From the NCBI GenBank assembly GCA_963745075.1, contig CAVUWV010000018.1:160001-224000 (forward strand): DNA of 64,000 bases. The letters run 5' to 3'. The DNA is from Candidatus Hydrogenedentota bacterium (GTDB lineage Bacteria > Hydrogenedentota > Hydrogenedentia > Hydrogenedentales > SLHB01). The translations under genes were made by a program, and so were the position numbers. The number at the start of each line of letters is the position of its first letter. Position 1 is the first letter of the stretch. This document shows positions 19,323-43,705 of this stretch, in pieces. The notes beneath the pieces are model-generated. The model was not told where the DNA came from. It was given only the letters and a program-made list of their open reading frames with translations, and ran no database searches.

Positions 19323-19810
19323 GATTTCACACTCCGGTCCCGTGGCGATACGTGAACCAGCCCACATCGACGATGGGACAGGGCGCGTCACCGAACACGC
19401 CATCCCACGCACGATGCAGCAACGCCCTTCTACCAGAAATATGGTACACTAGGTCCGAAAATGCGTCAAATATTTTCTCATGTATCGTCAGTGTGGCCTC
19501 CGTGCCAGGTATTCGCGCCAGTCGCCCGCCGTCGAGGGCAGTACGCCCGAATCCGAATTGCCATAGACCGATTTGCACAACCGATTTCACGTGCGGCCCG
19601 CCCCCGGCATGACTCTCGAGGAGTACCAGGAGACGCCATTTCAGCCGACACGATACCCTGTCGGTGGGACCTTAAAGCCGCATCAATCTTAATATTATCA
19701 CTACAACAAGTCAACCAATTCTGGTTTAACCGTAGTATAAGACACATAAATTCAATAAAAACACTTTTGTGATTGCACCTTCCCTGAAGCAGATACTCGG
19801 GGGATGGGGA

Positions 19811-21173
19811 TCAAGATTGGCCGGGGGAGTCGTGGGTAATCTGATCGTAGGGGCGGCCGAAGATGTGGGTCGTCCATTCGCGGCCGGATTCCCAATCGAC
19901 TTGGGCGCACTCCCAACCGGAATACAGCGAGATGGCCAAAAGCACACCGAGGAAGATCCATTGCCAAGCGACCCGCAGCCGATTCAGGAAGGGTGCGCCC
20001 ATCAGCAGCAGCATCGGCATGGCGCCGATCAACCAACGGAATCCGTAGGACTCGCCGCCGTAGTTGTTCGTGCGGGTTACGTAGTAGAAGACGATGGTTG
20101 CGGTAACGGCGCCGCCGGCCAGGGTCGACGCGCGCCAGGGCGCCGAGCGGTTGCGTGAGGCCCACAGGATAGCCGCCGGCCCGGCAAGCAGAATGGGGTA
20201 CAAGGAAAAGATGCCGGCTCGTCCTAACAGCATGTGGAAGAGGTAGGTGCCTTTCGGCTCGTTCAACGCGTCGATTCCCATGGGATGACGCCAGTAGGAG
20301 TCTTCGTAAAGGTACGTCTCCTTGCGCATTTGAACGGGCAAGGGGCTTCCGGTCGCGAGAACCATGATGATGAAATGAACGGCCAATGGCAGGAGCGCTC
20401 CCGTCCCCGTCCATAGGACCGTCTTCTTGGGGTATCGCACCAGCAACGCGATCCCGGCAGCGGCAACAAAGGCGGCCATGGGCAGGTCGATCGTTACGGC
20501 AAGGGCACCGGACAATCCGAATGCAGCAAAGCGCCAGGGGGCAGCAGCGAGACGGCCGCTCCCAATTCCGAGGGCGAAATACATGGCCACGACGAGGAGG
20601 CCCGCCGCCGGCACGTGGTTGCTCAGCTTGCCGCTGTATCCCCACAACTGGGTGCCGAATGCAAGCGCAAGCAGGAGAAACGCATGAACGCCGGGTCGAA
20701 TTTGCATCATCGAGAGCGTCTTCGAGAAGAAGATCAGCGCGAGGATATAGCTTCCGCCAACCAACGTTAGGGTCATGACGAACACGATTTGGGGCAGGTC
20801 GGAATCCCGATTCAGGTCCCAGCCCAGCAGCGCATGCATGACCTCGTATTCCCCAGTCATGATCAGGGGGAGTATGGGAGGTTTGCTCGAGATCGAGACG
20901 TCCGTCGCGCACGACGCCATCTGAAAAGATGCCCCGCACCATCACCTTGTCGATTGTCTGGGGTCCGAACGGATTCGGTGTGTCGCCGTCGGGATTGTCG
21001 ATGAACCAGGAGCCGTACTCAGTCAGACTGTAGACGGTAGCCAAGCGGCTGATTGCGTGGTCGCCTTTGACGCCTTCACGCGCTTCTTGAAGCGCGAGTA
21101 GCACGGCGACACCGATGACGGCGTATTCGAAGAGGGTCCAGCCCCAGGCCGTCCGTTCCGGTGCGGGTGTCAT
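19811..21173 (-). CDS. Polytopic membrane protein (possibly GT-C-like), split by a frameshift near 20895
   Basis: The 5' frame SRLATVYSLTEYG...TIDKVMV joins the ISSKPPILP frame if one base is removed from CGTCTCGATC. Many TM helices. Confidence 0.65.
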
Positions 21174-23531: not shown

Positions 23532-24293
23532 TCATCCTTTTCCCAGTATGCGAAGCGTGTCGGAAATCGCCCGATCCAGCGAATCGTTCGTTTCAGGCGA
23601 TACGGGAACCGTCTCGGTGCATCCGCATTCAGAGCACTTAAACGCCCGGCCCGAAACGCCATAGGCTTCACGGACCTTGTACAGCTTCTCCACTTCTTCG
23701 GATTCGAGACGCCGCACACGGCCTAGGAGATGGGCGGTCAGCATGGTTTCCGCGGCATGCTCGATCTTCTCCATCTTGTGGAGGGCGTCGAAGACATCAA
23801 CACCGATGGTCAAGGCGCCGTGCCGGTCCATCAGCAACGCATCGCACTGTCGAATGAGATCCCGAATGGCTTTCCCGCCTTCCGGAGTCGCGGGGGTCGC
23901 ATATTCCGCGGTCGGAACGCCGCCGATGGTGTATACCACTTCCGGTAACACACAATCGGACAAGGAAACTCCGGCCAGCGTAAACCCTATGGCCTTCGGG
24001 GGATGGGCATGGACGACCGCGCTCATCTCGGGGCGCTCTTCGTAGGCCGCGAGATGGGTGAAGAATTCGGAAGTCACCCGCCCGTCGCCGGAAATCTTGT
24101 TGCCCTTGCCGTCCGCGATTACCAAGTCGCGTGGATGCATATAGCCCTTCGAGACGCCGCTGGGCGTGCAGACATAGCGGTCGGGACCAATGCGAGCGCT
24201 GACATTGCCGTCGGTGGCGGCCACCAGGTTCTTCTCATAGAGCCGGCGGCCGGCGTCGCAGATGGCCTTGCGAATGTCCAGTTCCGTCTTCAA
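23532..24293 (-). CDS. Class II aldolase (FucA-like), BMC-associated
   Basis: DGNVSAR, TPSG, TSEFFTH, VVHAHPP, MDRHG, and an amphipathic C-terminal helix. Confidence 0.92.
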   Translation of the reverse strand: MKTELDIRKAICDAGRRLYEKNLVAATDGNVSARIGPDRYVCTPSGVSKGYMHPRDLVIADGKGNKISGDGRVTSEFFTHLAAYEERPEMSAVVHAHPPKAIGFTLAGVSLSDCVLPEVVYTIGGVPTAEYATPATPEGGKAIRDLIRQCDALLMDRHGALTIGVDVFDALHKMEKIEHAAETMLTAHLLGRVRRLESEEVEKLYKVREAYGVSGRAFKCSECGCTETVPVSPETNDSLDRAISDTLRILGKG

Positions 24294-24562
24294 TGCTCGA
24301 TCTCCACGTGGTCAACAATACCTACGATAGTACTCCGGACGGGCGCCTCGGGTTCGTTGAACATGAAGCGTGCCGAACTGCCTTCCTGCATCAAGAGTAC
24401 CAAATCCCCCACCCCGGCTTGAACCCGGTCCACCGCAACGAAGGGGGAGCCTTCCTCGGCGCCGTCCAGATCGACGTGTTTGACCATGAAGGTCTTCTGT
24501 CCCCGATAGAAGGAGTGCTTTTGCGTGGATATCACCTGTGCGACTACGCGGGCCAATTTCAC
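24290..24562 (-). CDS. BMC-P pentamer (EutN/CcmL family)
   Basis: MKLARVV, VAVDRVQAGVGD, GSSAR, IVGIVD. Confidence 0.92.
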   Translation of the reverse strand: MKLARVVAQVISTQKHSFYRGQKTFMVKHVDLDGAEEGSPFVAVDRVQAGVGDLVLLMQEGSSARFMFNEPEAPVRSTIVGIVDHVEIEH

Positions 24563-24981
24563 GTGGCTGACCTTTCTCGATTCAATCCCTGACGCTTTAC
24601 CCGCGTCAACCAGCCGCTAGTGGCCCCATAGAGAGCGCCCAAGACAAACCATTGAATCCCGCCGGCGAATAGAACGTAAAGTGCCCAAAGCAGCGGCGTG
24701 ACCTTCACGTAGTGATCCAACCGGAGTATCGCGTTGATAAGAAGAATAGGAAAATCGACCAATAGTAACATCTGGTCCTGCCATCGTACCGTGTGTGAGA
24801 AAATTTCACCATCCCACATGAGGATCGGGACAAACAACGTATGCACGACTGCAAAACCGACCCCACATCGTAGCGGTCTCCGGGGAACCCATTCCCTTAA
24901 TATGCGTGACCAGTACTCGGACGTGAGGTAAAGGGACGCGAAAACTACGAACAACGCGCAGATGGTTACCCCGTCGGCCAT
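24559..24981 (-). CDS. Hypothetical membrane protein inside the BMC locus
   Basis: Three to four hydrophobic helices. Stop codon overlaps the BMC-P start (GTGA). Confidence 0.6.
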   Translation of the reverse strand: MADGVTICALFVVFASLYLTSEYWSRILREWVPRRPLRCGVGFAVVHTLFVPILMWDGEIFSHTVRWQDQMLLLVDFPILLINAILRLDHYVKVTPLLWALYVLFAGGIQWFVLGALYGATSGWLTRVKRQGLNRERSAT

Positions 24982-25088
24982 TAGCTTGCTCGTTCCTCTT
25001 CAACCAACACGGACGTTTGGAATCACCAACCCTCAATTATTAGACGCTTTAGACCCCGGAAAGGTGACATTTGTTCGGAGCCGGCTGC

Positions 25089-25352
25089 TTATTGCGTCAC
25101 TTCATCTACAATGGCGACAATCGTCAAATCCGCCGGATTGAACTTGTCCGGCAGGGGAAACGTCGCTTCACGTCCCTGCGCCATGAAGACCCGCTCCCCT
25201 TGGTTAACGCCGATGGCATCGCAGGCGATGACGGGCTTTCCCACGGCTTCACTATGCTCGTCAATAGGCTGGACGATCAGGAACTTCACGCCCTGAAACG
25301 CGTCGAGCCGCTGACTCGCGACCAGCCGTCCAATGACCTTACCGGGTATCAT
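25089..25352 (-). CDS. BMC-P pentamer (EutN/CcmL family)
   Basis: GKVIG, IACDAIG, GREA, IVAIVD. Confidence 0.92.
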   Translation of the reverse strand: MIPGKVIGRLVASQRLDAFQGVKFLIVQPIDEHSEAVGKPVIACDAIGVNQGERVFMAQGREATFPLPDKFNPADLTIVAIVDEVTQ

Positions 25353-25358
25353 TCTGCC

Positions 25359-25917
25359 TTACCACGCATGCTTCTTTGTCAGATATTCGTAAATTTCCGG
25401 ATAGGGGTTAGGAATCACGACGCGCTCGACCAAGTCTGCGCCCGCGATGGCGGCTCCCGCGTCGACCGAAGCCTCCACGTCCGCCACGTCGCCCACGAAG
25501 GTCGTGTACCCTTTGCCGCCAATGTGATTGGCGAGGTGAAGCACAATGAGCGTGATGGGCGCGGCCTTGCATGCGGCGTCGGCAGCCTCGACAATCATGG
25601 CGGCGGACCGGGTCTCGAGGACGCCGACGGCGTCGAGCTTCGGAACCGGAGCTTCACCTCGGAGCGCGGGAAGCACCTGCTCGTGGAGGTTGGCCAGCAC
25701 GAACGACTCCACGACGGCGTCAGGGCCGGCCTTTTCGACGCCTGCGCGCACGGCCGCCTCGACGGCCGCGACTTCGCCGGTTAACGAGGGACATGTACTT
25801 GCCGGGCGTAATCGGCCGGGATTCGATGAGATCGACCGGCGCGGCCTTCACCATGGCATCGCTCGCGCGGATACCCGCCGCGATGGTGGTGTATTCGACC
25901 ATGCCTAGAACGGACAT
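25359..25917 (-). CDS. BMC-T trimer (PduT-like tandem BMC domain), frameshift near 25783
   Basis: [23 protein letters not shown] joins TGEVAAVEAAV...GVLET..ADAACKAA..IGGKG..GDVADV after removing one A. Confidence 0.85.
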
Positions 25918-25954
25918 AGGGATGCCTTTGCCACGGGACGTGGCGAGAAGCCCT

Positions 25955-25990
25955 TGGACTGAATGGACGATATGGACACTATGGACGAAG
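25955..25990. repeat. Imperfect 9-bp tandem repeat, 4 copies
   Basis: tggactgaa tggacgata tggacacta tggacgaag, intergenic. Confidence 0.7.
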
Positions 25991-26075
25991 AATACATCAG
26001 GCGCATGCCCCCGCCATTTGAGTGCGTTTCCACTTTAGCATCTTCATCTCCTCCAGCCTCCGGACTCCAGCCTTC

Positions 26076-27419
26076 TCAGACTATCCTAAACGAATCCACC
26101 AGCGTGCACCGGCGTTCGCGGGTGAAGCTGATGGGCGAGGTCATGCCTTCGCCGGTGGGGCTGGCGATGGTGAAGGATGTGTAGCCTTCCCCGCCCATGC
26201 CGAGACCCGCGAAGGTTGGTCCGTTCTTCACGAAGATGGAGCAGTTAATCAGGCGCGCCATCGTACTCAGTTTATCAATGTTGCGGGAGTGCATCGTCGC
26301 CGTGTGGCGGCGACCGCCCTCGTAGGCGACGGCGAGTTCGATGGCCTCGTCCACATTGGACACGCGCACAACAGGCATGACGGGCATGAGTTGCTCGGTC
26401 CAGGGCAACGGGTGGTCACGGTCGACTTCACAGATGGCCAGCCGCGTCTCCGGCGGCGCGTCAATGCCGATTTCGTGGAGGATGAGGTTGGCGTTCTTGC
26501 CGATCCAGCGTTTGTTGATGACACCACAGCGTCCGTCGCGCGACTCGAAGATGACGTCGCAAAGCCGTTCGATGTCTTTCCCCGCGACCTCGACGCAGCC
26601 ATGGGCGACCATGTGCCGCTTCAATTCGTCCGCGACAGCGGCGACGACCACAACTTCTTTTTCCGAGGTGCAGATGATGTTGTTGTCCAGCGATGCGCCG
26701 TCCACGATGTCCTTCGCCGCCTTGGGAACATCAGCGGTCTCGTCGACGACTGAAGGCGGATTTCCTGGACCAGCCGCGATGACCTTCTTGCCCGAGAGCA
26801 TGGCTTCGCGCACCACGCCGGGTCCTCCGGTCACACAGAGCAGCGCAACGCCGGGATGATGCATGAGCGCCTGCGCGGTGGCGATGGAGGGATCGGCGAT
26901 GGCCGTGACAAGCCCGTCGGGTCCACCCGCATCGACCACGGCAGCGTTGAGGACTTCCACGCACCGAATCGAGCACCGCTTGGCACCGGGATGGGCGTTG
27001 AACGCGACCGCGTTTCCGCCGCTGAGCATGGCAATGGAATTGTTGATGACGGTTTCCGTCGGGTTCGTCGTCGGGATGATCGAACCAATGACACCGTGGG
27101 GCGCCCGCTCCATCAGCATCAGACCGTGGTCGCCACTTTTCGCCCGGGGTTCCAAAATTTCCGGGCCGGGCGTCTTGATCGTGACGAGGAGGTTCTTCTT
27201 GACCTTGTCTTCGGGCCGGCCCAATCCGGTTTCCTGAACGGCCAGAAGCGACAGCTCTTTCACATGGGCCATGGCCGCCGCGCGCATGGACTCGACAATC
27301 CGGTAGCGCAGATCGAGCGAGCATCGTTCCATCTGCTCGAAAGCACGCCGTGCCCGCGCGACGGCGTCATCGACGCCGGGTTCGCGTGGATCCGTTACAG
27401 CACTTCCTGTTTCACTCAA
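26076..27419 (-). CDS. CoA-acylating aldehyde dehydrogenase (EutE/PduP family)
   Basis: PTTNP, TGGPGVV, AGPGNPP, catalytic DNNIICTSEK, EQLMP, TIASPTGEG. Confidence 0.95.
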   Translation of the reverse strand: MSETGSAVTDPREPGVDDAVARARRAFEQMERCSLDLRYRIVESMRAAAMAHVKELSLLAVQETGLGRPEDKVKKNLLVTIKTPGPEILEPRAKSGDHGLMLMERAPHGVIGSIIPTTNPTETVINNSIAMLSGGNAVAFNAHPGAKRCSIRCVEVLNAAVVDAGGPDGLVTAIADPSIATAQALMHHPGVALLCVTGGPGVVREAMLSGKKVIAAGPGNPPSVVDETADVPKAAKDIVDGASLDNNIICTSEKEVVVVAAVADELKRHMVAHGCVEVAGKDIERLCDVIFESRDGRCGVINKRWIGKNANLILHEIGIDAPPETRLAICEVDRDHPLPWTEQLMPVMPVVRVSNVDEAIELAVAYEGGRRHTATMHSRNIDKLSTMARLINCSIFVKNGPTFAGLGMGGEGYTSFTIASPTGEGMTSPISFTRERRCTLVDSFRIV

Positions 27420-27446
27420 GGTCCGAAGGCTTCCTCTGTTTATCCC

Positions 27447-28239
27447 TTACTCGAAGGCGGACGAAACGATGCCGACCACCGCGAGCGTCCCATTATACGT
27501 AAAATGAGCGATCACGCTCGGAAGAATCGAATCATACCGTTGGCGCAGGTAGGTGAACACGGCGCCCATGACGGTAACAACGGCAATCCCGACCCAATCA
27601 CCGTAAAGTTGCGGCGTATGAATCAGTCCAAACCAAAGCACGATGATGCCAAACGCCACCGGAACCCCGGTCAGACGCCGCAGGGACGGGTACACGAATC
27701 CCCCGGTAGTAAATCTCCTCGAACGGCGGTACCAGAATCATCATCACCAAGAACAGGGGCGACAGGGACGGCTCGCCCCCTTCCTCTTCCGGGTTTTGGA
27801 GCGCGAGGTCGATGATGTACCCCTTTCCATTGGCAAAGAAGTACATAAGAAATCCGGCCATCACGGCGGCGACCGCGCCGAAAGCAACACAACGCAATGC
27901 CGTCTTCCACGGGATGGCGCGAACGGCAAAGGCCGTGCGGATCGAATGGCGGTACTTGCGGCACGCGAAATACCAGACCACACAAAGGGTGGCGAACCAC
28001 GACAGCACCAGCGTTGGAAGCAGGTATTCCATACGGGGCGTCATCGCGTTCGGTTGAAAGCCCGACGCAGCGAGCATGATGAAGGCGGTCAGAATGCCGA
28101 GAACGATTTCGACAGCCCAGATGATGCCGATGGCCTTCAGAAAGTCTTTCCAGCCGACGTCCCGAGGAGGTGAAGGCTCGACGACCGGTTGATCGCCTTG
28201 GGCATCGTCCGCAGGTGTGCGTGGCGACTCAACCGTCAT
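27447..28239 (-). CDS. CPBP (CAAX/Abi) intramembrane metalloprotease, frameshift near 27702
   Basis: EEIYYRG joins FVYP..FGLIH..SVIAHFTYN after removing one base of a 5-C run. Confidence 0.85.
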
Positions 28240-28525
28240 GCTTGCGCCATTTGGTTTCGCCGTCGAGGTCCCACGAATCGACAATCGCCATGATGACGGC
28301 GTCGCAGGGACGGTCCCGCGTCGCTTCGGTCATGCGCGCAGAACTGCCGGTCGCGACGAGCACGACCTCGCCGACGCCTGCGCCGACGGCGTCGACGGCC
28401 ACCACGTATGCGCCCGTTTCCTTCGCTTCGAGGTCGAGAATGCGCACGACGAGGAGCTTGCGCCCGTCGAGGGACGCTTCCTTCGCGGTGGAAACGACGG
28501 TTCCGGCTACACGGCCAATCTGCAT
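28229..28525 (-). CDS. BMC-P pentamer (EutN/CcmL family)
   Basis: MQIGRVAGTVVST.K, VAVDAVGAGVGE, GSSAR, IMAIVD. Confidence 0.94.
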   Translation of the reverse strand: MQIGRVAGTVVSTAKEASLDGRKLLVVRILDLEAKETGAYVVAVDAVGAGVGEVVLVATGSSARMTEATRDRPCDAVIMAIVDSWDLDGETKWRKHDG

Positions 28526-28553
28526 ACTCGCTCCTTCTACCGGCGAAGAATGA

Positions 28554-28717
28554 GGAACATCCCCCTGATCCCCCTTCCAAGGGGGAATGGTTCGTAACGC
28601 TAAGCGTTGCGTTAGGGGCAACGTAGACTTCGGATAACGCGCCAGCGACTACTTGAATACCAATGGCATTCGCTGTGCGCCATTCCCCCTTTGAAGGGGG
28701 ATCAAGGGGGATGTTCC
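28554..28717. repeat. REP/REPIN- or MITE-like element, copy 1
   Basis: About 37-bp terminal inverted repeats: ggaacatccccctgatcccccttccaagggggaatgg / ccattccccctttgaagggggatcaagggggatgttcc. Confidence 0.85.
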
Positions 28718-28733
28718 GCCCGTTGTGAATAAA

Positions 28734-29039
28734 CTACCGCTTCGATTCTTTGGCGGCCTCATCTTTGCGGCCCAGGGGCAACGCCGTGTCCACGTTCGTG
28801 TGCGGACGCGGAATGATGTGGACGCTGACCACTTCGCCAACGGCGCGGGCGCCCCGTTCCCCGGCTTCGCACGCGGCTTTGACCGCTGCCACGTCGCCGC
28901 GCACGATGGCGGTCACATAGCCGCCGCCAATCTTCTCGTAGCCGACCAGTTCCACCTTGGCCGCCTTGACCATGGCGTCGGACGCCTCGACCATCGCGGC
29001 GAATCCCCGCGTTTCCACCATTCCCAGTGCATCAGCCAT
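28734..29039 (-). CDS. BMC-H hexamer shell protein
   Basis: [40 protein letters not shown]. Confidence 0.97.
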
Positions 29040-29158
29040 CGCGTTTCTCCCGTTAACCCCTGCAAACTTGTAATGCCATGTTTGGGCAGACTCTTAAACC
29101 CTGCCCCGCTATCTTAATCGGAGACAGCAGAGACTACAGCGACACCAGAGACGTGAAC

Positions 29159-29785
29159 TCAACGTCGCTCCACATCGCGGCCGGAGAGACCTTCGAGCGA
29201 ATGGATCGCGGCTTCGCTGCCGACAACCACGTCCGCCTCTTCACCGCCGAGGTAAAGACGCCCGAAGTTGCCGAAAGGCCGAATGTCGACCAGGGTAACC
29301 CGGCTCGCCTTCTCCGCCTCGTTGGCTGCCAGTATAGCGTAAAGGGCGGGCTGCGTCTCCAGAATGAATAAGGTCTGCCCGGCGAGGAGCATGGACCCAC
29401 TCCGATTCTTGTTGATGAGTGAGGCGTGGTACGGGTCGACCTTGCGGATGACTGTGCTGGACGCGATGCGCGGTTTCTGGCGGTCGGACTCTTTCAGTCC
29501 AAGCGCATCGAGGACAGCCTGGCCGGCTTGGCGGACGTTGGCCTGAGATTCGGAGTGAACCTCGAGAGTCCCGAAACTCCGTTCGACGACCTGGATGGCG
29601 GGCCGCACGTCGGTCGCTTTCACGGCGATGTCGAGCAGCCGAACGATTTCCATTCCCGGCGCGACTTCGACAAAAAGATTGGCCATCCCCGCGACGGGCA
29701 TGTAGCCCTGCACGGTGGAGGCCATGAAGGAAGCCAATTGCTCCTGCAAACTGTCGAGAATGATGTAGCTGCGTAACTCCGCCAT
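29159..29785 (-). CDS. BMC-T, circularly permuted stacking type (CcmP/CsoS1D-like)
   Basis: ELRSYIILDSLQ.QLA, VEVAPG, VVERSFG.LE.H, ILETQPA.YA..AANEAEKA, FGRLYL.G. Confidence 0.9.
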   Translation of the reverse strand: MAELRSYIILDSLQEQLASFMASTVQGYMPVAGMANLFVEVAPGMEIVRLLDIAVKATDVRPAIQVVERSFGTLEVHSESQANVRQAGQAVLDALGLKESDRQKPRIASSTVIRKVDPYHASLINKNRSGSMLLAGQTLFILETQPALYAILAANEAEKASRVTLVDIRPFGNFGRLYLGGEEADVVVGSEAAIHSLEGLSGRDVERR

Positions 29786-31334: not shown

Positions 31335-31364
31335 TTGACATACTCATTACTATCGTGCTAGAGT
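31335..31364 (+). promoter_or_regulatory. Putative sigma70 promoter for the M4 peptidase
   Basis: TTGACA, 18 nt spacer, TAGAGT with an extended -10 TG. Confidence 0.45.
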
Positions 31365-31429: not shown

Positions 31430-33193
31430 ATGGGGGAGCGTGTAATTAAAAAAATACTATGGATCCGGGGATCTAACAAGAGTTTCCCAGCGATGGGCAT
31501 TCTGGCGCTGGCACTTACCGCGGCTCTGGCCATCCTTCCCGCCGCAGCCACTGAACTCAATGAGAGCGATGCGGCCATCGCATCGTCGCTTATCGGAAGT
31601 ATTGAGAACCTCGCGCCGGACGAGACTCCGAGGGTTCGAGTGGACAATCGCGGGGTTGTAACCCACTTCGCCGCGCCGCGAGGACGTTCCATGACCGTAG
31701 AAGGGGCGCTGCCGGACGACGGCAAAGACCAGCGGGCGCTGAAATTCGTCGAAACCCACGCGCAAGCGCTGGGGCTCGCCAGCGACCGTGTCTCCCTGAA
31801 CGTCCACGCCATCACGACGACCCCGGAACGTTCGTATGTGCGCATCCGGCAACAGTACGACGGGATCCCCGTCCACGGCGCGGAAATCGTCATGCAGATC
31901 CAGCCGGATGGCACGGTGAAGTCTTTTCTGGCGGATATCATGACGGAAACCGTCGGCTTGGACGCAGACCCCGCGTCCACCGAACCGGCGCTGGGTGCGT
32001 CCGATGCATCCGGTTACGTCTTGGCCGTCGCCAACAAGCTCCTGCAAAAAGCGCAGGAGGATTACCGGGCGGATATCGCATTCGCGGTTCAATCGGGCGA
32101 AATCGACGCGGAGACGGCACAGGAACACCTCGATAGAGCAAGTGCTTCCGCTGTGGAGTTTTGGGACGATGGCGAACTCCAGATTTACGCCCCGCACTTA
32201 ATCGATGACACCGGCGAAAATGCGCTGGCATGGGCCTTCAAAGTGAAAGACACGGTGGGGATTATGACTCCCGTGCAGGTATTCGTCGACGCAGATAGCG
32301 AGGCGTTGCTTCACCTGCATCCCCTCGCTGCGGACGCCATCAACCGCCGATTGTACGACAACAAGCTGGACGGGGACGCCGGAATCCCTTACGCAGTACT
32401 CCGTCGCACCGAGAACAGCGGACCGGTAACTATCTTCCAGACGATCCATTTCGCCGACTTCAACGCCCATTGGGATATTCTGGGTTACGTGTACGACTAC
32501 TTTGAAGATAATCACGGATGGGATGCCATGGATGGAGTCGGCGGGCCGATATTCTCATACATGAGGTACGACACCATATTCGATGCTTTCTACAATTCGG
32601 AAGATGGTTACATGTGGTTTGGGACGAATGGGTTCGCGGTGTCAGACAACGTCGTGGGTCATGAGTATACACATGGAGTTCTCCACGAATCGGCCGGCCT
32701 CATTTATGATTGGGAATCGGGAGCGATCAACGAATCTTTGGCTGATATGTGGGGCGAGTTTATCGACTGGTCTTGCCCTGTGCTCGGGAACGACGGAGCA
32801 AATAAGAGATGGAAGCTTGCAGAAACGACGGGCTCGGGAGTAATCCGAAACATGAAGAACCCACCCGCAAAAGGTCAGCCAGACACGTACCAAGGGACGA
32901 ACTGGTATTTCCCATTTGATGACAACGACACATTCGTTCACACGAATAGCGGCGTTGGCAATAAGCTTGCCTACCTGCTCACCGATGGTGATACGTTCAA
33001 CGGGTACACAATCAGCGGTATGGGAGAAGGCGTTGTACGAGACCTCTATTGGGAGACTGTGCAACTAATGCCACAAAGCCTTGGGTATAACGATCTCTAT
33101 CAACTGTTGTTGGACGCAGCCGACAATCTCGGGTTCACTACAGCCCAGGTGGACAACGTTCAAAATGCTTGCGAGGCTGTCGAGATCGACTGA
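31430..33193 (+). CDS. Secreted M4 (thermolysin-family) zinc metallopeptidase with propeptide
   Basis: Signal peptide, FTP propeptide (QQYDGIPVHGA), VVGHEYTHGV, ESGAINESLAD, VHTNSGVGNK. Start uncertain (31430 or 31493). Confidence 0.93.
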   Translation: MGERVIKKILWIRGSNKSFPAMGILALALTAALAILPAAATELNESDAAIASSLIGSIENLAPDETPRVRVDNRGVVTHFAAPRGRSMTVEGALPDDGKDQRALKFVETHAQALGLASDRVSLNVHAITTTPERSYVRIRQQYDGIPVHGAEIVMQIQPDGTVKSFLADIMTETVGLDADPASTEPALGASDASGYVLAVANKLLQKAQEDYRADIAFAVQSGEIDAETAQEHLDRASASAVEFWDDGELQIYAPHLIDDTGENALAWAFKVKDTVGIMTPVQVFVDADSEALLHLHPLAADAINRRLYDNKLDGDAGIPYAVLRRTENSGPVTIFQTIHFADFNAHWDILGYVYDYFEDNHGWDAMDGVGGPIFSYMRYDTIFDAFYNSEDGYMWFGTNGFAVSDNVVGHEYTHGVLHESAGLIYDWESGAINESLADMWGEFIDWSCPVLGNDGANKRWKLAETTGSGVIRNMKNPPAKGQPDTYQGTNWYFPFDDNDTFVHTNSGVGNKLAYLLTDGDTFNGYTISGMGEGVVRDLYWETVQLMPQSLGYNDLYQLLLDAADNLGFTTAQVDNVQNACEAVEID

Positions 33194-33279
33194 TCTACGG
33201 GAATCATCCGCCTAAAATGCGTTTACAAGAAAGTGCACCTAGGTAATTCGTCCCCAACCAACCTAGCGGAGTAGTAGCT

Positions 33280-33459
33280 ATGCGAAGAAACAAGACTATG
33301 AACCACATCTTCTTAGTAACGTTTCCCAGACCTGCTGTGTCATTCTGGCAAGGAAACGCGCTCACGCATTTCAAGGAGTGCCATTCGCATCAGAACACGG
33401 TCAGCGGCAAGAAGGAGTGTTACCAAACGTACCAGGCGGAGAAATCCGAAAAGCAGTAA
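33280..33459 (+). CDS. Small two-Cys peptide P1 (59 aa), not in the ORF track
   Basis: GGAG RBS. MRRNKTMNHIFLVTFPRPAVSFWQGNALTHFKECHSHQNTVSGKKECYQTYQAEKSEKQ. Paralogous to P2 and P3. Confidence 0.7.
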   Translation: MRRNKTMNHIFLVTFPRPAVSFWQGNALTHFKECHSHQNTVSGKKECYQTYQAEKSEKQ

Positions 33460-33491
33460 CAGGGATTCGTGTAATAGGTGAGGTAGGAGTT

Positions 33492-33668
33492 ATGCGCAGA
33501 ATCAAGTCTATCAGCCGCACCCCGTTTGCGAGTTCAATTCCTGCGGCAGCATTTCGGCAGCCGCAACCATGGGAATACTTGTTAGGCTGTCTAGCCAATC
33601 CAATAGTGTGGGTAATTGGAATAAAGCGATGTTACCGTTACCAGCGTGATTTACCATTGCAATACTGA
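33492..33668 (+). CDS. Small two-Cys peptide P2 (58 aa)
   Basis: GAGGTAGGAG RBS. MRRIKSISRTPFASSIPAAAFRQPQPWEYLLGCLANPIVWVIGIKRCYRYQRDLPLQY (internal start of track ORF 33378..33668). Confidence 0.75.
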   Translation: MRRIKSISRTPFASSIPAAAFRQPQPWEYLLGCLANPIVWVIGIKRCYRYQRDLPLQY

Positions 33669-33754
33669 TAAGCGCAGGGATCCAAACTGTCGGCCGATCA
33701 ATCGTACGCCGTGCGACGGATGGGGGTGCGGACAAAACGGATGAGGTATCACTG

Positions 33755-33913
33755 ATGCGTCGAATCAAACGATTAAGCCGGGTTCCCTTCGTCGATCCAT
33801 CGCTCCCGGCACCAGCGATTCAAGCGGAAACCCCGAAGGAGCGGTACAAGACCTGTGAAGACGAACAAACGTCGTTGACTGGCAAGGCCGCCTGCTACCG
33901 CACGTTCGTATAG
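33755..33913 (+). CDS. Small two-Cys peptide P3 (52 aa), not in the ORF track
   Basis: GAGGT RBS. MRRIKRLSRVPFVDPSLPAPAIQAETPKERYKTCEDEQTSLTGKAACYRTFV. Confidence 0.75.
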   Translation: MRRIKRLSRVPFVDPSLPAPAIQAETPKERYKTCEDEQTSLTGKAACYRTFV

Positions 33914-33966: not shown

Positions 33967-36591
33967 TCACGCGGTCAGTTCGCGGGTCTTGCGGACGATG
34001 TAGCTGGACAGGGCGCGGCGGAGCCAGGCGATGCGTCCTTCGGCCAGGGCGGTGCGCATTCGTGGTTCCAGCCGATCCGATCCGGGAACCAGTCTGTTTT
34101 CGTAACGCAGTATTTGGAAATTGGCGAATGCCTGCTTCGTTATCTCCGTGATGGACTGGACAACATCGGCGGGCGGCGTTGCAGTAAACGAGTCGATGGT
34201 CACTTCCGGCGGCATGGTAAAGGACCGGAGTTCGTACGGACCGAGCGTGATTCGCCAAGTCTGCGGCGCGTCGGTATTGGCGTTCGCGGCGAAATCGTGG
34301 ACGTTTCCCGGGGGATTTCCGAAGCGAATCTCGATGTCGACCGAATAGTATTCGCGATTGATTGCGTACAGGTAGCGTTGGTTCTCGTGCATCAAGGTGC
34401 GCACGGCCACGGGGTCGGACGTTGGGCCGACGGTATCGAACTTCTTCGCGGGCAAGGCACGGTACGCGAGGGCAAACCGCTGCAAGTCCGCCGTGTGGGC
34501 CTTATCGAGGAACAGACCGCCCCGGGTGATGCGGCAGGCGTCGAGTTCGGCGACCGCGTGGGCATAGGGCTCCATGAAATGCACGCCTACCGGGAACGGC
34601 GGCGTGATGCGGGACTGGGAATCCCACCAGAATCCGTCCGCCGGATACTCGGAATTGACGCGGAGAATGCCTTCGGCGGGTTTCCCGTCCATGACCGCCA
34701 GGGCCTCGGCGTTGGAATCGCCGGGTTCGGGACGGGACCACACATGTTTCCCCCACGCTTCCACCCAGCAATTGAAGATGAACGCGCCGGGACGCGGCAA
34801 CGCGCCGGCGGCATCGAGCGTGTCCTGGTCGAGGAAGTCGAAATCGCGGAACATGCAGCCCTCTTCGACAGGCCGGTTGGCGCCACCGGTGGGATGAGGC
34901 CCATGGCCGCCGCGGTCGCGGGAATTGCCCATCCCGAGATCGATTTCCAATCCTGGCTCGTCGTTGTACAGCGCCAAGTCGATGCCGGCTTCCCGGTACA
35001 AGTCTCGGTTGCTTTCGCGGGCGGAAATCTGGTGGCCGGCCGAGGTCTGGCCGAGCACGCCGGGGATGAAGGTCTCATCCCACAACGTGACCGTCACGCG
35101 GAGATCGGAACGTGACTCGGCCAAGGTCTGACGAATCAGGCCGAAGAATTCCCGGATCTTCTTGCAGCGCCACGCGATCCACGCCGGGCCGCACACGGTC
35201 GTGAGATAGTCGTAGCGGCGGGCGAACCGGTCGGGCGCCTTCGGGTCAACGGGCACGGCGATGCTGCTTTCCTTTTCGAACAGGCCGACCGTGTAGTCGT
35301 CGTATCCCACGCGAATCGAGCCGAACCACGGCATGGCCGATGCGAACATGTTGAACGAGATGCCTTTGAATGCGGAGAACTTTCCGTAGCGCCGGCCAAT
35401 CTCGCGCATGAATCGCAGGATGACGTCCTGCACGGTGGGATGAAGCGGATTGAACATGGGCTTCATGCCGCTGGACTGACCGGGGTTTTCACCGTAGGCA
35501 AAGTTCGGCAAAGCGCCGCCATAGGGTTCGATAAAGGGTTTGTCATTCAGAATTTCGGCGAGGGTGTTGAAATTGCGCACGTTGTACAGCGGCGTCCAGT
35601 CTCCAGTACTCCCCTGGACCTGGTTGTTCCAGAGCATGTTGTTGTACGTATCCGCGCCGGCCTTGATGGCCTCGATATCAGTATTCATGTTCTGCAACAG
35701 CGTGCCCAGGCGCATCAGGGTCAAGGCGCCCTGGAACTCCAGACCTTCCTTCGTGAAACGTTCGAGCAGGTCCGCATACCAGTCCGCGGGCTGGGTCGTC
35801 CAGCGCAGGTACACCTTGCGGTCGCGTGCGATCACCAGGTCCAACCCGCCGGAGGGTTCACGCTCGGACGGGAATTGCGGACCGTGATACCACGCCATGG
35901 GATAGACGAGCAGGCCTTGTCCGCTGTGCCGGGCGTAGGTGACGATGCGGTCGATCCACTCGGCGTGGCTCATTGCGCCTTCCGCCGCTCCGGTGCCGCA
36001 GGGGTCCTCGTACTGAATGCCCAACTCGCGCCGCCCCACGGATGGGCCGGTCACGGCGACGGGTGGCAAATCGTCTAACTCGTAGATCTCGATATTGGAC
36101 ACGGCGGCGGGTTCCCCCTCGCCCCAGGTCATGAAGACGATGCTGCAATCGTTCCAGCGCGGCCAGAAGACTTGCTGGATGTCGAGCATCTCACCGGAAA
36201 GCGGCTGCGCCCAATTGGTGAAGGCGCCGGTGGTGAGGTCGTAGCTCGTGCCATCCATCATGCACATGAACCGGCGCTTGTCATCGGGAAACCGGACGAG
36301 CGCGAGGTGCGGTTTGCCCGGGTTGTCGATGGGAAACCGGTACCCAAACCGGGCCATGGGATTCGGTTCGGTTTCGCGGTAGCGTCCCGCTGCGGTTTCA
36401 ACGACGTGGGTTTCACCGAAGGCGAAGAACGTGTCGGGCGAGTAGTCCTGGGTGCAGTCGATGGTGTGCAGCAGGCGTCTTCCCGTGGCATCCGGGGCAG
36501 CCGTCTCGCCACGCGCCGCAAACAACGAGATTCCAAGGCCCGCACCGGCGGCACCCACCAGAAACGCGCGCCGTGACAAGTCGCCAGCCAT
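33967..36591 (-). CDS. Large Tat-exported protein, possibly glycoside hydrolase-like (GHL10-like TIM barrel)
   Basis: Twin-arginine signal SRRAFLVG, FNPLHPTVQ, GYDDYTV.LF, WIAWRC.KI. Confidence 0.7.
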   Translation of the reverse strand: MAGDLSRRAFLVGAAGAGLGISLFAARGETAAPDATGRRLLHTIDCTQDYSPDTFFAFGETHVVETAAGRYRETEPNPMARFGYRFPIDNPGKPHLALVRFPDDKRRFMCMMDGTSYDLTTGAFTNWAQPLSGEMLDIQQVFWPRWNDCSIVFMTWGEGEPAAVSNIEIYELDDLPPVAVTGPSVGRRELGIQYEDPCGTGAAEGAMSHAEWIDRIVTYARHSGQGLLVYPMAWYHGPQFPSEREPSGGLDLVIARDRKVYLRWTTQPADWYADLLERFTKEGLEFQGALTLMRLGTLLQNMNTDIEAIKAGADTYNNMLWNNQVQGSTGDWTPLYNVRNFNTLAEILNDKPFIEPYGGALPNFAYGENPGQSSGMKPMFNPLHPTVQDVILRFMREIGRRYGKFSAFKGISFNMFASAMPWFGSIRVGYDDYTVGLFEKESSIAVPVDPKAPDRFARRYDYLTTVCGPAWIAWRCKKIREFFGLIRQTLAESRSDLRVTVTLWDETFIPGVLGQTSAGHQISARESNRDLYREAGIDLALYNDEPGLEIDLGMGNSRDRGGHGPHPTGGANRPVEEGCMFRDFDFLDQDTLDAAGALPRPGAFIFNCWVEAWGKHVWSRPEPGDSNAEALAVMDGKPAEGILRVNSEYPADGFWWDSQSRITPPFPVGVHFMEPYAHAVAELDACRITRGGLFLDKAHTADLQRFALAYRALPAKKFDTVGPTSDPVAVRTLMHENQRYLYAINREYYSVDIEIRFGNPPGNVHDFAANANTDAPQTWRITLGPYELRSFTMPPEVTIDSFTATPPADVVQSITEITKQAFANFQILRYENRLVPGSDRLEPRMRTALAEGRIAWLRRALSSYIVRKTRELTA

Positions 36592-36774
36592 ATCAGTCTC
36601 CCCCATCTGCGAATACGTCCCGTGATTTGCGGCTTTACTCAATCGAAGTAAGGTGCAGCATACGACTTCATTCACCGCGCGCACAACACGACATCGAACA
36701 TCGCCGGACCCGCGTTGACCGGCGTCCGTTTCGGCAAGTACACTATACGAGGGTCACTTCAAAGGAGATGCATC

Positions 36775-38170: not shown

Positions 38171-40999
38171 ATGTCGTACATCGCAACTGTTGCGGTGGTC
38201 TCTCTGGCGATCGGCGCACAACTGCCGGAAGGTAATACCTTCACAAACTCCATCGGGATGGAGTTCGTGCGGATCGAGGCCGGGTCGTTCGACATGGGGT
38301 TCGACGGGACCTTGCCCGAAGACGTGGCGGGGCGGTCCTGGCGAACATCGGGAGACGCGGATGAGCGGCCGGTCCATCGGGTGACCGTCTCTCGACCGTT
38401 CTTCATGGGCGCTGTCGAGGTCACGAACGCACAGTACGAGGAATTTGCACCGGATCACAAGGCATTGCGCGGCAAGCTGGGATTTTCCGCGGACGACGAT
38501 GAAGCAGTCGTCTTCGTGTCTTGGCAGGAAGCGGCCGCGTTTTGCGAATGGCTTTCGAAGAAGGAGGGGCTCCCCTACCGGCTTCCGACGGAAGCGGAAT
38601 GGGAGTATGCCTGCCGGGCCGGGACGACGACGTTTTACAACACCGGCGATACGCTTCCCGCCGAGTATCTGCAAAACGCCGGCATGTCCTGGTATCCCGA
38701 TCCCGTGCGGTCAGTCGACGAGCCCAAGATCACCCTGCACGTCGGGAAAACGCCGCCTAATGCGTGGGGTCTCCACGACATGCACGGCAATGTCGAGGAG
38801 TGGTGTTTCGACTGGTACGGGCCCTACGCGGAGGGCCCGCAGACCGATCCCGTGGGCCGGGCAGAGGGTGATTTCCGCGTTGCCCGCGGGGGCAGTCATT
38901 CGACCGAACCCTACTACCTGCGGTCGGCAAACCGTAGCGGAACCTTGCCCGGGGATCGGAACTGGGTGATCGGGTTTCGCGTCGCGCTCGGAGAACTGCC
39001 CGCGACAACGCCGCTCCCGTCCGTGCCGCCCAAGCGTTGGCAAGAAGACGTAACGGCCCAGCGGTCAGCAGTCTCGACCGACCCGGACACGCCGTACTTC
39101 AGCGGCCCGCAGCAATACGTCCACATTTCGGCCGATGCGAGCGGCCCCATTTTCGCGCATCACAACCATTGTCCAGCTTTGGTGGAATGTCCGAACGGCG
39201 ACCTGCTTGCCATCTGGTACTCGTGCATAGAAGAACCGGGGCGGGAGTTGTGTATCGTGGCGAGCCGATTGCGAGCCGGGCAGGAGGAGTGGGATGAGGC
39301 GGACTTGTTTTGGGATGCACCGGATCGCAACGATCACGCGTCGGCCTTGTGGTTCGACGGGGACCAGACGCTCTATCACTTCAACGGCCTGAGCGTGGCG
39401 GCCACATGGGGCAACCTGGCAACCGTCATGCGCACTTCGACGGACAACGGCGTCACGTGGTCAAAAGCAAAACTCATCAATCCCGAACACGGATTGCGGC
39501 ACATGCCCATCGAATCGGTATTTCGCACCCAGGAAGGGGCGATTCTTCTGCCGTGCGATGCCGTAACCGGCGGCAATGGCGGGACCGCGATTCATCTCAG
39601 CTACGACAACGGCGCAACCTGGACCGATCCGGGTGGCACCATTGCGGGCATTCACGCGGGCGTGGTCCAGTTGCGTGACGGACGGCTGATGGCCCTGGGA
39701 CGTGGTGATACCATCGACGGACGCATGCCGAAAAGTATCTCGGAGGATATAGGAAAAACGTGGAAGGTCACGCCTTCGGATTTTCCACCCATCGGCGGCG
39801 GGCAACGGCTGGTCTTAACGCGCTTGCAAGAAGGTCCGCTCTTCTTTGCGTCGTTCGCGCAGGAAGTACCGTTCACCGACGCGACGGGCGCCGAGCGGAC
39901 CGGTACCGGCCTGTTCGGCGCGCTGTCTTTCGACGACGGTGAGACGTGGCCCATTCGACGCCTCATCACGAACGACGGCGCGGGCCGGCAGGTGGAAACG
40001 ACGGATGGCGCGTTGTTTCTCATGGATGGCGACCACGCAGAGCCGAGGGGCTATTTCTCGGTGTGCCAAGGCGACGACGGACGGATTCATCTCATTGGCA
40101 GCAGGCAGCATTACGTGTTTAACCTCGCCTGGCTCAAGACGCCCCCTCCCCCACCCTTTCTCGACAACGGCGTGACCGCCCATCGCGGCGATTCGCTGGC
40201 GTATCCGGAAAACACATGCCTGCCTTTGAAAGCGCTATCGCGTTGGGCGCGGACTGGATCGAATGCGATGTGTATCGGACGACCGACGGCAAGCTGGTGG
40301 TGATCCACGACGAAACGACGGGGCGCGTGGGGAACGCGGATGTCGTCGTCGCGGAGTCGACGTACGATGAGCTTCGAAAGATCGACGTGGCTGACGCGTT
40401 CCGGCACGAGCGCGGACTTTCGGAGAATGACTGTCCGCCGGTGACGATACCACTCTTATCGGACGTCATTGCTCTTGTGCGGAGACAGCACCGCACCCGA
40501 CTGTCCATCCAGCCGAAGGCGAATGTGGTGGACGAGGTGATTGCGTTGGTGAAGACCATGCATGCGGAGCCGTGGGTCGGGTTCAACGACGGCGACCTCG
40601 CAAAGATGTCGCGCGTGAAGGAACTTGCCCCCGCTATCCCCGTCTTCTGGGATCGGCCGGAGGATTTCGATGTGGCCCGGGATATCGATATCGCTAAGGA
40701 ACGCGGATTCGAGACGCTCGTCGTGCAATTCAAGGGAATCACGCCAGAAGTCGTGTCGGCCATTCGTGAAGCCGGCCTCGAAGCCGGCGCGTGGACCGTA
40801 AACGATGAGGCTGACACTCGCACACCTGAATGAACTCGGCGTGAGACGAATTTACACGGACGTTCCGGCGACGCTGTTGAAAATTGCGCGACAGCGAATA
40901 ATGAGCCGTATATCGATCATCGGGGTACCTGCCCCGACCGATCTACGATTACGATTACGATTACGATTACGATGGGAAACCGCCAAGCTACCTCGCTGA
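38171..40999 (+). CDS. Secreted multidomain protein: FGE/SUMF1 domain + BNR/sialidase propeller + glycerophosphodiester phosphodiesterase; frameshifts near 40215 and 40815, true stop uncertain
   Basis: RLPTEAEWEYACRAG, NAWGLHDMHGNVEEW; Asp-boxes STDNGVTW, SYDNGATW, SEDIGKTW, SFDDGETW; AHRG..PENT/MPAF..IECDV..DGKLVVIHD; WTVND..LGV..IYTD.P. Confidence 0.8.
40944..40973. repeat. Hexamer microsatellite (TACGAT)x5
   Basis: Five perfect units where two convergent genes meet. Confidence 0.9.
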
Positions 41000-42105
41000 T
41001 TTCGCTCCGGTCAGTTTCCGGATCAATTCGACCTCCTTCGGGTCAAACGGTGTGCCGTCCGGCCGGAAGATGTCGTGGAACCATACCGGCGGTTCGGCCG
41101 TGTACGGTCTTCTCCCACGAATCCCAGGGATAGATCGTCTGGGTCTTGCCGGAGACCAATCCCCAGTTGCACGCGCCGATTCTGCGCTCCTTCAGGTACG
41201 GCAGGATCGCGGCAAAGGTGCTGCCGACCGGGCGGCTCATGTATTCCGTGCAGATGATGGGCCGGTCATAGGGCAGTAACGACTCCACCCGCTTTTCCAT
41301 GTCCGGCAACGGACCGTAGCAGTGAAAGCTGATGAAGTCGGAATGGTCCAGCATGAACTGGTTCAACGGCGAGAGCCTCTCCGGGTCCGGCCAGCCTCCC
41401 GTCCACACGCCGACCGTGAGCGGCTGCTCCGGGTTGGCGGTGCGAGCCCAAGGGTAGACTTCCCGGAGAAAGAGCAGCGACATCTCTTCTTTGTTCGACA
41501 GATCGAGCTTGCCGTAGCTGTTGGCGTTGGTGTTGCCGGGTTCGTTGTACAGATCCCAGCCCAATACGCGCGTGTCGGTGCCGAAGCGTTTCAACACGGC
41601 CATCACGTAGGGCTCCATCTCCTCGTAGCGGGACGGGTTCTTGAGGATTTCCACCGAAGGACTCTGGACCCACCCCGAGTTGTGCACGTGGGGTTTGGGT
41701 TCGCGTTGCTTTCCCGCCTTTGGAAGCGGGATCCCAGCATGCGTCAAAGAGGACGAAGAGCGGCGCTATCCCATGACGATCCGCAATGGAAAGGAATTGG
41801 TCGATCCGCTGCAGGAACCCTTCAGGATCTTCCTGATACGGGATGTCGTGCAGGTACACGCGAACCATGTTGAATCCGAGCCCTTCGGCGTACCCGAGTT
41901 CGCGATCGATCGTGTCGGGGTCGAAGGTGTCGGCCTGCCACATCTCCAGCTCGTTGATGGCCGTGCTGGGGATGAAATCGCATCCGACCGGCCAGGGACG
42001 ATTCACATACCACGCATTGATCCGCTCGACACTCCACCGGTCGTCCACATCGGCGGGCGGGGCAGCGGATACGACTGCCATTGCGATTACACCCATCGTG
42101 AGCAC
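40988..42105 (-). CDS. Clan GH-A glycoside hydrolase (GH5-like), frameshifts near 41729 and 41108
   Basis: PSTAINELEMWQ, WDLYNEP (acid/base), ICTEYM (nucleophile), NWGLVSGKTQT; restored C-terminus WFHDIFRPDGTPF. AAGGAG RBS and GTG start. Confidence 0.82.
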
Positions 42106-42124
42106 GTTTCGGGTCTCCTTCGCA

Positions 42125-43705
42125 CTACTGCTTTTGCTGTTTCGCTTTGAGTTCGTCGTAGAGTTGGTGATATCCGGCCATGTCTTCGAGGCGCAGGAGA
42201 ATGAGGTACTCGAAGGAGAGCCGAGAAGCACCGAAGCTGATGGAACGTTTCTTGGGCGAGCGTTGGTCAGTCTTGACGAATTTCAGGGTGTGATTTCCCA
42301 CCGTGAGATCGTGGAGATCGAGGTCGTGCACGACATACTGGGATTCGGTGACCACCATGTCGATGGGAAGTCCGATAGCTTCGTCATCTAGGTAGGGCTG
42401 CCAGATCGCACCGGTCTGCGTGTCTTCGAATAACCCGCTGATACGGTATCGCCCAGCCTTTTCCACGCTGAAATCGAAGGTAATCGACCCGTCGTCGGCG
42501 TCGGTGTAGTAGGTTGTCCCAACGATGGCGGGGACCACCTTTTCGGGCGGGTCGGCGCGATGCGCGAGCGTGGACACGGGAATGATTTGATAGGGGGCGA
42601 TGCGCTTGTCCGCCGGTGGCAAGGGCGTATCGATCGTGGCCGGGGGATACTGGTACCAGAAGGCAACGGAACTGATCCAGTCCGGGCGTTCCTGGGAGCT
42701 GCCGATGCTATCGGCGTCCGGTCCCGCCGTCTCGTCGACAACGCTGCCGCGGTGCTCGATGGTGACGCGAATGGATTTGTCGAAGAGAATGGGGTCCGTG
42801 ATGTGCCAGCGGTAGGCGGTCCCGCGGTCGCTGGCAAAAACGCCTTCGTACAACGAAACGCCGTGATAGGGGGCGTTGAACTCGCGGAAGCCCCAGGCGT
42901 CATTGAAATAGTCCTCCGTGCCGGTGCCCTTGAGCCGGGGCGTCTCCTCCCCGTCGATGTAGATGAAGTCGTCCCCTTCGCCGAACCAGCCGATCTCCAC
43001 CTGCTGCACCGAGTACACCGTGCCCACGTACTGGCCGCGGCCTTTCGTATCGAGAATGGTGTAGTGTCCCGGCGGGGCCGGCATGGCCTGGTGGTATTGA
43101 GCATGAAAATACAAGGTATCCTCGGGAAGGCTCTCGCGCTTTTGCCAGTCGAGGTAGTAGTAGAAGGAAGGCACGGGATAAATGGGGGATTCGTTACTCA
43201 CCGTGACTTTGATGTGCTTTCGGAACGGCAGGTGCCAGTAACAGGTTCGCGACAACCCGGCGGATGACGCCACAACCGGGAGCGACGTAACGTTCTTCGA
43301 TACCCCGTGACCCACCGCGAAGAAATCGCCGATGGGCGATTGGACGCTGGGTTTGTCGTTGCCGTCGTAATACACGCGCAACACGACGGAGCGCCCATAA
43401 AATGGGTCGAAGGCGGCCATGGTATTCCAGAAATGCGTAATCACACCGGGTCCGTCCACGTCGAGGAGCGTAAGCGTATCGCCGGGCATGATGGAGCGCA
43501 TATCTCCGTTGCTGTTGATGTCCTCGGCGGAACTGCTGGCTCGCTCGGCGGTCCCGGGCTGAAGCCGGGTCAACGCATCGAACGTGCCCGTGGAGGCGGT
43601 CTGTGCACCTGACGCCAGCACAACCGTAAACGCGAAAAGAAATCCCGAAAGCATAGCGCATCGTGTGAATCCCCCTTTTGGTCTTGGTGAACCGTTATGG
43701 TGCAC
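42125..43705 (-). CDS. DUF2961 / GH172-like glycoside hydrolase
   Basis: GPGVITHFW, P.GDFF, WFGEGDD, GTGTEDYFN.AWG, YRWH..DPI.F. Confidence 0.88.
   Translation of the reverse strand: MHHNGSPRPKGGFTRCAMLSGFLFAFTVVLASGAQTASTGTFDALTRLQPGTAERASSSAEDINSNGDMRSIMPGDTLTLLDVDGPGVITHFWNTMAAFDPFYGRSVVLRVYYDGNDKPSVQSPIGDFFAVGHGVSKNVTSLPVVASSAGLSRTCYWHLPFRKHIKVTVSNESPIYPVPSFYYYLDWQKRESLPEDTLYFHAQYHQAMPAPPGHYTILDTKGRGQYVGTVYSVQQVEIGWFGEGDDFIYIDGEETPRLKGTGTEDYFNDAWGFREFNAPYHGVSLYEGVFASDRGTAYRWHITDPILFDKSIRVTIEHRGSVVDETAGPDADSIGSSQERPDWISSVAFWYQYPPATIDTPLPPADKRIAPYQIIPVSTLAHRADPPEKVVPAIVGTTYYTDADDGSITFDFSVEKAGRYRISGLFEDTQTGAIWQPYLDDEAIGLPIDMVVTESQYVVHDLDLHDLTVGNHTLKFVKTDQRSPKKRSISFGASRLSFEYLILLRLEDMAGYHQLYDELKAKQQKQ

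Follow-up and report, generated by a model that had tools for sequence, protein, structure and literature searches.

The question raised by this locus is whether three consecutive small ORFs behind a peptidase gene encode a genuine peptide family and, if they do, how the products would be matured. The ORFs lie near the middle of the window, the whole 64,000 nt stretch of Candidatus Hydrogenedentota DNA that was analysed. An initial annotation had reported three plus-strand ORFs of 59, 58 and 52 aa, each with its own RBS, and both the coordinates and the GGAG/GAGG sites were confirmed. Basic N-termini, P-x-x-A motifs (FPRPA, IPAAA and LPAPA) and a C-x12/13-C pair ending G-x3-C-Y are present in the window ORFs as it had claimed.

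The window locus

Below, G000 denotes the source genome and G001–G005 the other five genomes of its genus; the phylum set comprises 135 genomes. The locus contains the following features.

31335..31364, + strand, candidate sigma-70-like promoter (TTGACA-18-TG-TAGAGT, 10/12 match), 5' of the M4 gene
31442..33193, + strand, short thermolysin-type M4 peptidase gene (Pfam Peptidase_M4, M4_C and FTP above cut-off)
33268..33271, + strand, RBS of peptide 1 (GGAG), by sequence
33280..33459, + strand, peptide 1, 59 aa, C34-x12-C47, a subtype shared with G003, G005 and, more distantly, G002
33480..33489, + strand, RBS of peptide 2 (GAGG / AGGAG), by sequence
33492..33668, + strand, peptide 2, 58 aa, C-x13-C, a Trp-containing hydrophobic subtype also found on contig C9 of G000 and in G003
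33743..33746, + strand, RBS of peptide 3 (GAGG), by sequence
33755..33913, + strand, peptide 3, 52 aa, C34-x12-C47, with a helical-hairpin model
33967..36684, - strand, convergent GHL10-like gene (under cut-off), the array boundary and outside the system

The GGAG/GAGG site stands 2–8 nt ahead of the ATG in all three ORFs, and the ORF starts form a 27-nt DNA repeat family. Peptide 3 shares 87% identity with the first copy of the array on C9, but a CAG-to-TAG change at codon 53 ends it 7 aa earlier. GC content is about 50% across the 3' half of the M4 gene and peptides 1 and 2, against 59% for the genome. The other neighbour of the locus is a class IV aminotransferase gene. Rfam searches of the window, of the arrays and of the cassette loci described below brought up nothing of note.

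The statement in the initial annotation that no modifying enzyme is adjacent does not stand: the M4 gene, a conserved neighbour, ends 86 nt upstream of peptide 1, and a candidate processing cassette is present on another contig. The M4 product has a Sec-like signal, an FTP propeptide and an intact HEYTH motif (32660–32674), and stops where the M4_C domain stops. Its longest ORF runs from 31211; alignment to the C9 paralogue and the promoter match point to 31430 or 31442 as the likely start. The promoter-pattern scan gave four sites against 2.2 in shuffled sequence and is weak alone; a TTGACA box likewise lies 5' of the deleted M4 gene of G002.

Elsewhere in the window, a minus-strand cluster at 24290–29785 resembles a bacterial-microcompartment locus; from their translations we take its genes to encode shell-type proteins and an aldehyde dehydrogenase, with presumably a class II aldolase at 23532–24293. 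Long genes at 38171–40833, 41043–42231 and 19752–21173 are apparently split by frameshifts, which may be assembly errors.

Family size and range

A genome-wide motif scan of G000 gave 14 ORFs, eight of which belong to the family: the three window peptides and five on C9, where the array follows another M4, with 69% identity to the window M4. The initial annotation had proposed a profile search of related genomes, and a profile of these eight peptides found 32 further copies in four of the five other genus genomes (E 1e-9 to 1e-23). When a 48-row profile was run over the 135 phylum genomes, eight copies were found in G000, nine in G002, 12 in G003, ten in G005 and a single one, at a contig edge, in G004; there were none in G001 (81% complete), and the remaining 129 genomes yielded one weak match. 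A weak match in G038 was dropped, there being no small ORF at that position.

Protein searches returned 20 matches each, all unnamed or 'hypothetical', and those carrying a label were all from Candidatus Hydrogenedentota; match P0001, a 1181-aa repeat, was discarded as false. No Pfam family exceeded the cut-off in the 48 members, two families appearing at E 0.02–0.03 in one or two of them. NCBIfam gave no matches for the six peptides scanned, including the three from the window, and PHROGs gave none. Atlas returned P450 matches below 0.8 and nothing usable for peptide 2. Among 7999 candidates there were no longer or fused forms, which is weak evidence. Metagenome contigs, queried with two single peptides, and plasmids gave nothing. 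A search of the literature on small peptides of Hydrogenedentota, with most subscription journals and supplements outside its scope, found no description. Within the databases and literature searched, the window peptides are real genes of an undescribed two-Cys family. The earlier proposal of an undescribed paralogous family with a leader-core layout and no Sec core is borne out by the homologues, by the selection reported below and by the lack of any match to a described family in Pfam, NCBIfam or PHROGs.

In some arrays, M4 3' tails have been copied together with the next peptide gene (L001:9396-9701 on G000:C9; L035:5476-5772 and 6839-7012 in G002). Such joint duplication suggests array growth by unequal recombination. 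A GC-rich inverted repeat of the GCCGCCTCTC...GAGAGGCGGC type is found 5' of some peptide genes in G002, G003 and G005, at L033:14380-14430 and 16140-16200, L036:430-520 and 1410-1470, and L035:5130-5180 and 6280-6330; it is absent from the window and has no Rfam match. A gene which we take to be PIN-domain-like, with a short partner, lies 3' of the array in G003 and G004 (L033:16789-17407; L038:8115-8745).

Conservation, selection and predicted structure

The region between the two Cys residues had been described as a highly variable loop. Alignment of 48 sequences instead gives a clear consensus, C-L-x-E-Q-T-T-L-x-G-K-K-x-C, and structure prediction gives a helical hairpin that is conserved. 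Invariance in the family is limited to M1 and the two Cys; P18 is conserved in at least 90% of members, and the G and Y vary. Variation sits between subtypes, of which about ten, judged by eye from the alignment, recur across species.

The initial annotation had also suggested a test for selection, and codons and residues were counted by hand. Between peptide 1 and its G003 orthologue, codons 23–59 include 16 synonymous-only changes, five that change the residue and 16 that are identical; the corresponding figures for codons 1–22 are eight, ten and four. Residues therefore change at 5/37 core codons against 10/22 leader codons, which indicates purifying selection on the core, with the leader less well conserved. 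A layout of conserved leader and hypervariable core is not supported by this comparison.

Two AlphaFold2 models show coil at residues 1–26, a helix at 27–37 and a second helix from residue 41 (helix pLDDT about 85–90), with C34 and C47 placed one on each helix. The core is predicted to form a two-helix hairpin after an unstructured 26-residue N-terminus, and the Cys pair, on facing helices in the models, suits a disulfide. Foldseek gave no match at E <0.001 and the best VIA Z score was 4.2, with generic hairpins only.

Association with short M4 peptidases

Intact short M4 genes (569–586 aa) lie 5' of arrays in G000 (twice), G003 and G005. The M4 gene of G002 (L035:6839-7140, contig C243) has suffered a large internal deletion that left the upstream TTGACA box, the start and the tail in place; the array there holds eight intact peptides and one frameshifted copy. 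Over the arrays, the M4 is intact and short in four cases, deleted in one, while two arrays run off their contigs upstream, and the array follows a short M4 gene or its remnant wherever the upstream DNA is readable. Retention of eight peptides in G002 despite the deleted M4 implies that the M4 is dispensable for keeping the peptides.

Most other M4s of the order have frames of 1000–1400 aa. The third M4 of G000, on C8, has 1118 aa, a long tail and a convergent neighbour. Leader peptides lie behind none of the five readable long-M4 loci, a count that left out G058:C164 (gene end missed), G059:C21 (runs off the contig), L126 and L127. Outside the genus, a leader peptide follows two of the four readable short-M4 loci (present in G032 and G042, absent from G030 and G018). 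G042 belongs to another family, and a leader-type two-Cys peptide is located 3' of its short M4. In G032 an insertion and a second piece of M4 separate the whole M4 from the two-Cys leader peptide. The insertion (L060:3466-4146) is an ORF with flanking repeats, presumably transposase-like, between the whole M4 and the second M4 fragment. Derivation of the peptides as a split-off tail of long M4s was considered and rejected, the tail of the C8 M4 having no likeness to them and no fused forms having been found.

In a hand count, F, I, L, V or M stands directly after P-x-x-A in 29 of the 38 genus peptides and, among leader peptides without a linked M4, in 4 of 18; the 38 are one clade, so that 29/38 is no independent evidence. 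N and Q occupy this position in the two peptides that follow an M4 outside the genus. Thermolysin prefers a hydrophobic residue after the cut. As a hydrophobic residue usually follows P-x-x-A, the M4 would be the enzyme most likely to make or finish the cut.

Leader-tagged peptides across the phylum

A leader-only profile gave weak matches in 16 genomes outside the genus. The weak match in G031 is an array of three genes whose products begin with the same basic stretch and carry P-A-x-A ahead of different cores; its leaders are similarly long, and there is no M4 on its 6.5-kb contig. Eight further weak leader loci were examined; five were false, and three held small-ORF genes, in two cases as a row of four with a GNAT at its end. 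Own-genome leader matches on C10 and C21 were dropped.

A profile of 13 leader peptides with rows from five genomes (A4) matches 92 of the 135 genomes at E 0.001, most of these matches not having been inspected singly. Within G000, its matches include peptide 2, at E 0.004, as well as scattered peptides on C8, C10 and C13; at E 0.001 it finds no array peptide of G000, G002 or G003. The 48-row array profile (A2) matches A4 over the leader (probability 92.9%, E 3.6e-7, 30 columns), a match that is partly circular because most A4 members were found via array-derived profiles. Like the leader-tagged family, the array peptides have a basic N-terminal strand followed by P-x-x-A, a comparison that is also partly circular and in which the array leader is the longer. 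Array leaders have approximately 21 residues and Arg3, against approximately 14 and His3 in most cassette leaders, and peptide 1 deviates further. Cassette-adjacent peptides in two other families start MQRIHPVTR and MRRIRPVTR. To judge from the sequences, the array leader resembles that of the cassette-linked peptides. Neither of the two leader profiles matched CteA when searched against the PDB.

A lone 52-aa leader peptide on G000:C13 (L110:1405-1563) has C-x10-C with G-K before the second Cys, and may be distantly related to the array cores. C-x11-C pairs occur in cassette-adjacent peptides and in the M4-linked peptide of G042 (L092:1279-1461; L094:1242-1442; L063:2104-2262), and it is possible that the array core originated from pairs of this kind.

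A candidate processing and export cassette

Across the phylum, leader-tagged peptides often adjoin a cassette of GNATs, a CAAX/CPBP protease, an ABC exporter and a CteB-like RRE protein. The order in G058 is peptides, two GNATs, an Rce1/CPBP protease, an ABC ATPase, a permease and a 622-aa protein. The cassette of G000, on a different contig (C20) from the arrays, has the same order, with two peptides, three GNAT-type ORFs, an Rce1/CPBP-type ORF, an ABC ATPase, a permease and an RRE-SPASM-GNAT protein. The cassette families were scanned on the G058 orthologues. The 622-aa fusion of G058 matches CteB (5WGG) at E 1.8e-17, residues 4–102 (RRE) and the SPASM part being aligned, and carries a C-terminal GNAT; it scores 50.6 bits against TIGR03974, for which the cut-off is 425. 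The CxxxCxxC radical-SAM motif is absent from the G000 protein and from the 86-row consensus. The cassette RRE was found in 121 of the 135 genomes, including 6/6 of the genus. A predicted complex of RRE residues 1–100 (86 rows) with peptide 3 (46 rows) scored 0.01, with controls that did not fold, and carries no weight either way.

Within the first 30 residues of the cassette RRE (L121:5684-7606) lies a near-invariant C-F-C-F-E-C, which might bind metal or form a disulfide; this stretch was not seen in the CteB alignment. A PqqD search of G000 led to two other loci, on C26 and C36; that on C36 is an unrelated radical-SAM gene. This PqqD-fused gene (L116:9923-11294) is apparently frameshifted near its 3' end, giving two ORFs.

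Proposed mechanism and alternative explanations

The preferred reading, to which we give about an even chance, is that the arrays are a genus-specific expansion of the leader-tagged family; on this view the remote cassette would act on the peptides in trans, the M4 would probably trim them, and they would be released as disulfide hairpins. The peptides would be co-transcribed with the M4 from the promoter at 31335–31364. Their basic strand, M-x-R-I-x-x-V-S-R, would be read in trans by the CteB-like RRE, and the peptide would leave the cell through the ABC exporter. The leader would be cut at or near P-x-x-A, probably by the Sec-exported M4 and otherwise by the CPBP protease, and the Cys pair would close a disulfide outside the cell. 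The product could be a cocktail of about ten subtypes of 30–40-residue hairpins, acting as extracellular signalling or antagonistic ligands. On sequence grounds, the peptides are probably exported and trimmed. A wider proposal is possible but doubtful: the phylum may share one radical-free peptide line (a CteB-derived reader, acyltransferases, CPBP and an ABC exporter), to which the genus may have added a fast-turnover hairpin library with an extracellular thermolysin-type M4 as leader peptidase, and this would constitute a new peptide class.

The leading alternative, which we consider unlikely, is that the peptides act, like emfourin, as dedicated inhibitors or modulators of the M4 next to them: the hairpin, or else the junction with the leader, would occupy the active site, and the paralogues would tune different M4s. 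It would account for the order of protease and then small gene in every readable array, the duplication of M4 3' tails along with the peptides and the recurrence of the M4–peptide link outside the genus. It is also in keeping with the co-encoding of emfourin with protealysin, which it binds 1:1 (PMC9505478), and with the presence of plant hairpin peptides among the nearest, although not significant, shapes. However, the window M4 carries both a signal peptide and an FTP propeptide of its own, unlike the intracellular protealysin, and a single inhibitor would suffice, yet 3–12 divergent subtypes are kept. The linked M4 in G002 is deleted while eight intact copies persist, the searches made gave no sequence or fold match to any inhibitor family, and the phylum-wide leader would be left unexplained.

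Ranking next, and rather improbable, is a role as cassette-processed secreted peptides (bacteriocin-like or signals) for which the M4 is a co-regulated neighbour supplying the promoter, all cutting being done by CPBP. The loss of most of the M4 in G002, where the promoter region, gene start and peptides were kept, would fit this reading; the cassette has a protease of its own, and the G031 array manages three long-leader peptides on a 6.5-kb contig without an M4. Against this, the catalytic motifs are kept at four loci, including two chromosomal contexts in G000, and the adjacency recurs in another family, with none at the five long M4s.

It is more improbable again that these are unprocessed cytoplasmic small proteins, such as metal- or nucleic-acid-binding hairpins, whose leader likeness is convergent. 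The lack of a Sec core, the ease with which short basic motifs match by chance (5/8 false) and the faster drift of leaders than of cores are compatible with such proteins; the at least 90% conservation of P18 directly before the folded part, the two invariant Cys suited to a disulfide on facing helices and the profile match to cassette-linked leaders speak against them. Finally, although turnover is seen in the M4 tail fragments, the frameshifted G002 copy and the early stop in peptide 3, the notion that the ORFs are non-coding repeat debris of local duplications is extremely improbable and is refuted by the codon pattern of the peptide 1 core against its G003 orthologue (16 synonymous-only and 5 residue-changing codons), an RBS preceding each window ORF and at least 37 copies with open frames existing in five genomes.

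Significance

Hydrogenedentota are uncultured. If the preferred link between arrays and cassette is true, a conserved export line, found in about 90% of the searched genomes, would handle peptide libraries specific to particular lineages. An M4 peptidase would at the same time gain a role, that of leader peptidase, which for lanthipeptides is so far a prediction only (PMC11876861). All the parts are small and can be synthesized or expressed, so that substrate and inhibitor could be separated by one enzyme assay. The natural set of at least 40 predicted single-disulfide helical hairpins could serve as mini-protein scaffolds.

Comparison with known systems

The proposed route resembles leader-directed peptide maturation in how it would operate, but the array peptides are not double-glycine class II bacteriocins: there is no GG motif in the 48-row alignment, and no C39-ABC transporter is adjacent. 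Plant alpha-hairpinins and vicilin-buried peptides (Jug r 2 leader, Luffin P1) share a helix-turn-helix of approximately 37 residues, a likeness of shape only. The Foldseek E values for the alpha-hairpinins were 2.8 or worse and the Z scores, 3.6–3.9, were tied with unrelated helices and are not significant. Plant alpha-hairpinins use two CxxxC pairs.

In the staphylococcal AgrD system, the CPBP protease MroQ cuts the AgrD leader, and there, as here, a leader-core precursor without a Sec core is found with the CAAX/CPBP gene apart from the precursor (PMC12312760). Unlike that system, the present one has no AgrB, no sensor kinase pair nearby, no amphipathic leader and no double-glycine site, and the array core is a predicted disulfide helical hairpin.

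The likeness to SCIFF/ranthipeptide systems lies in the remote cassette protein, whose RRE and SPASM parts are homologous to those of CteB. The CteA leader binds the CteB RRE as a beta-strand (PMC6231123), and by analogy the short, basic, strand-like array leader would suit such binding. The array peptides are nevertheless not SCIFF members, on Cys count and on the lack of an active maturase. They have two Cys rather than six, match no SCIFF model and are encoded on another contig behind an M4; the cassette protein is far below the TIGR03974 cut-off, has no CxxxCxxC in the G000 copy and has a GNAT at its end.

The gene order resembles that of protealysin and emfourin, in which an M4 gene is likewise followed directly, on the same strand, by a small gene. 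No Pfam match exceeded the cut-off in the 48 members and emfourin is absent from the fold-search lists, which does not exclude homology. In contrast to the intracellular protealysin, the M4 here is of a secreted FTP type, and it is followed by 3–12 paralogues of approximately 60 aa, each with a leader and two Cys.
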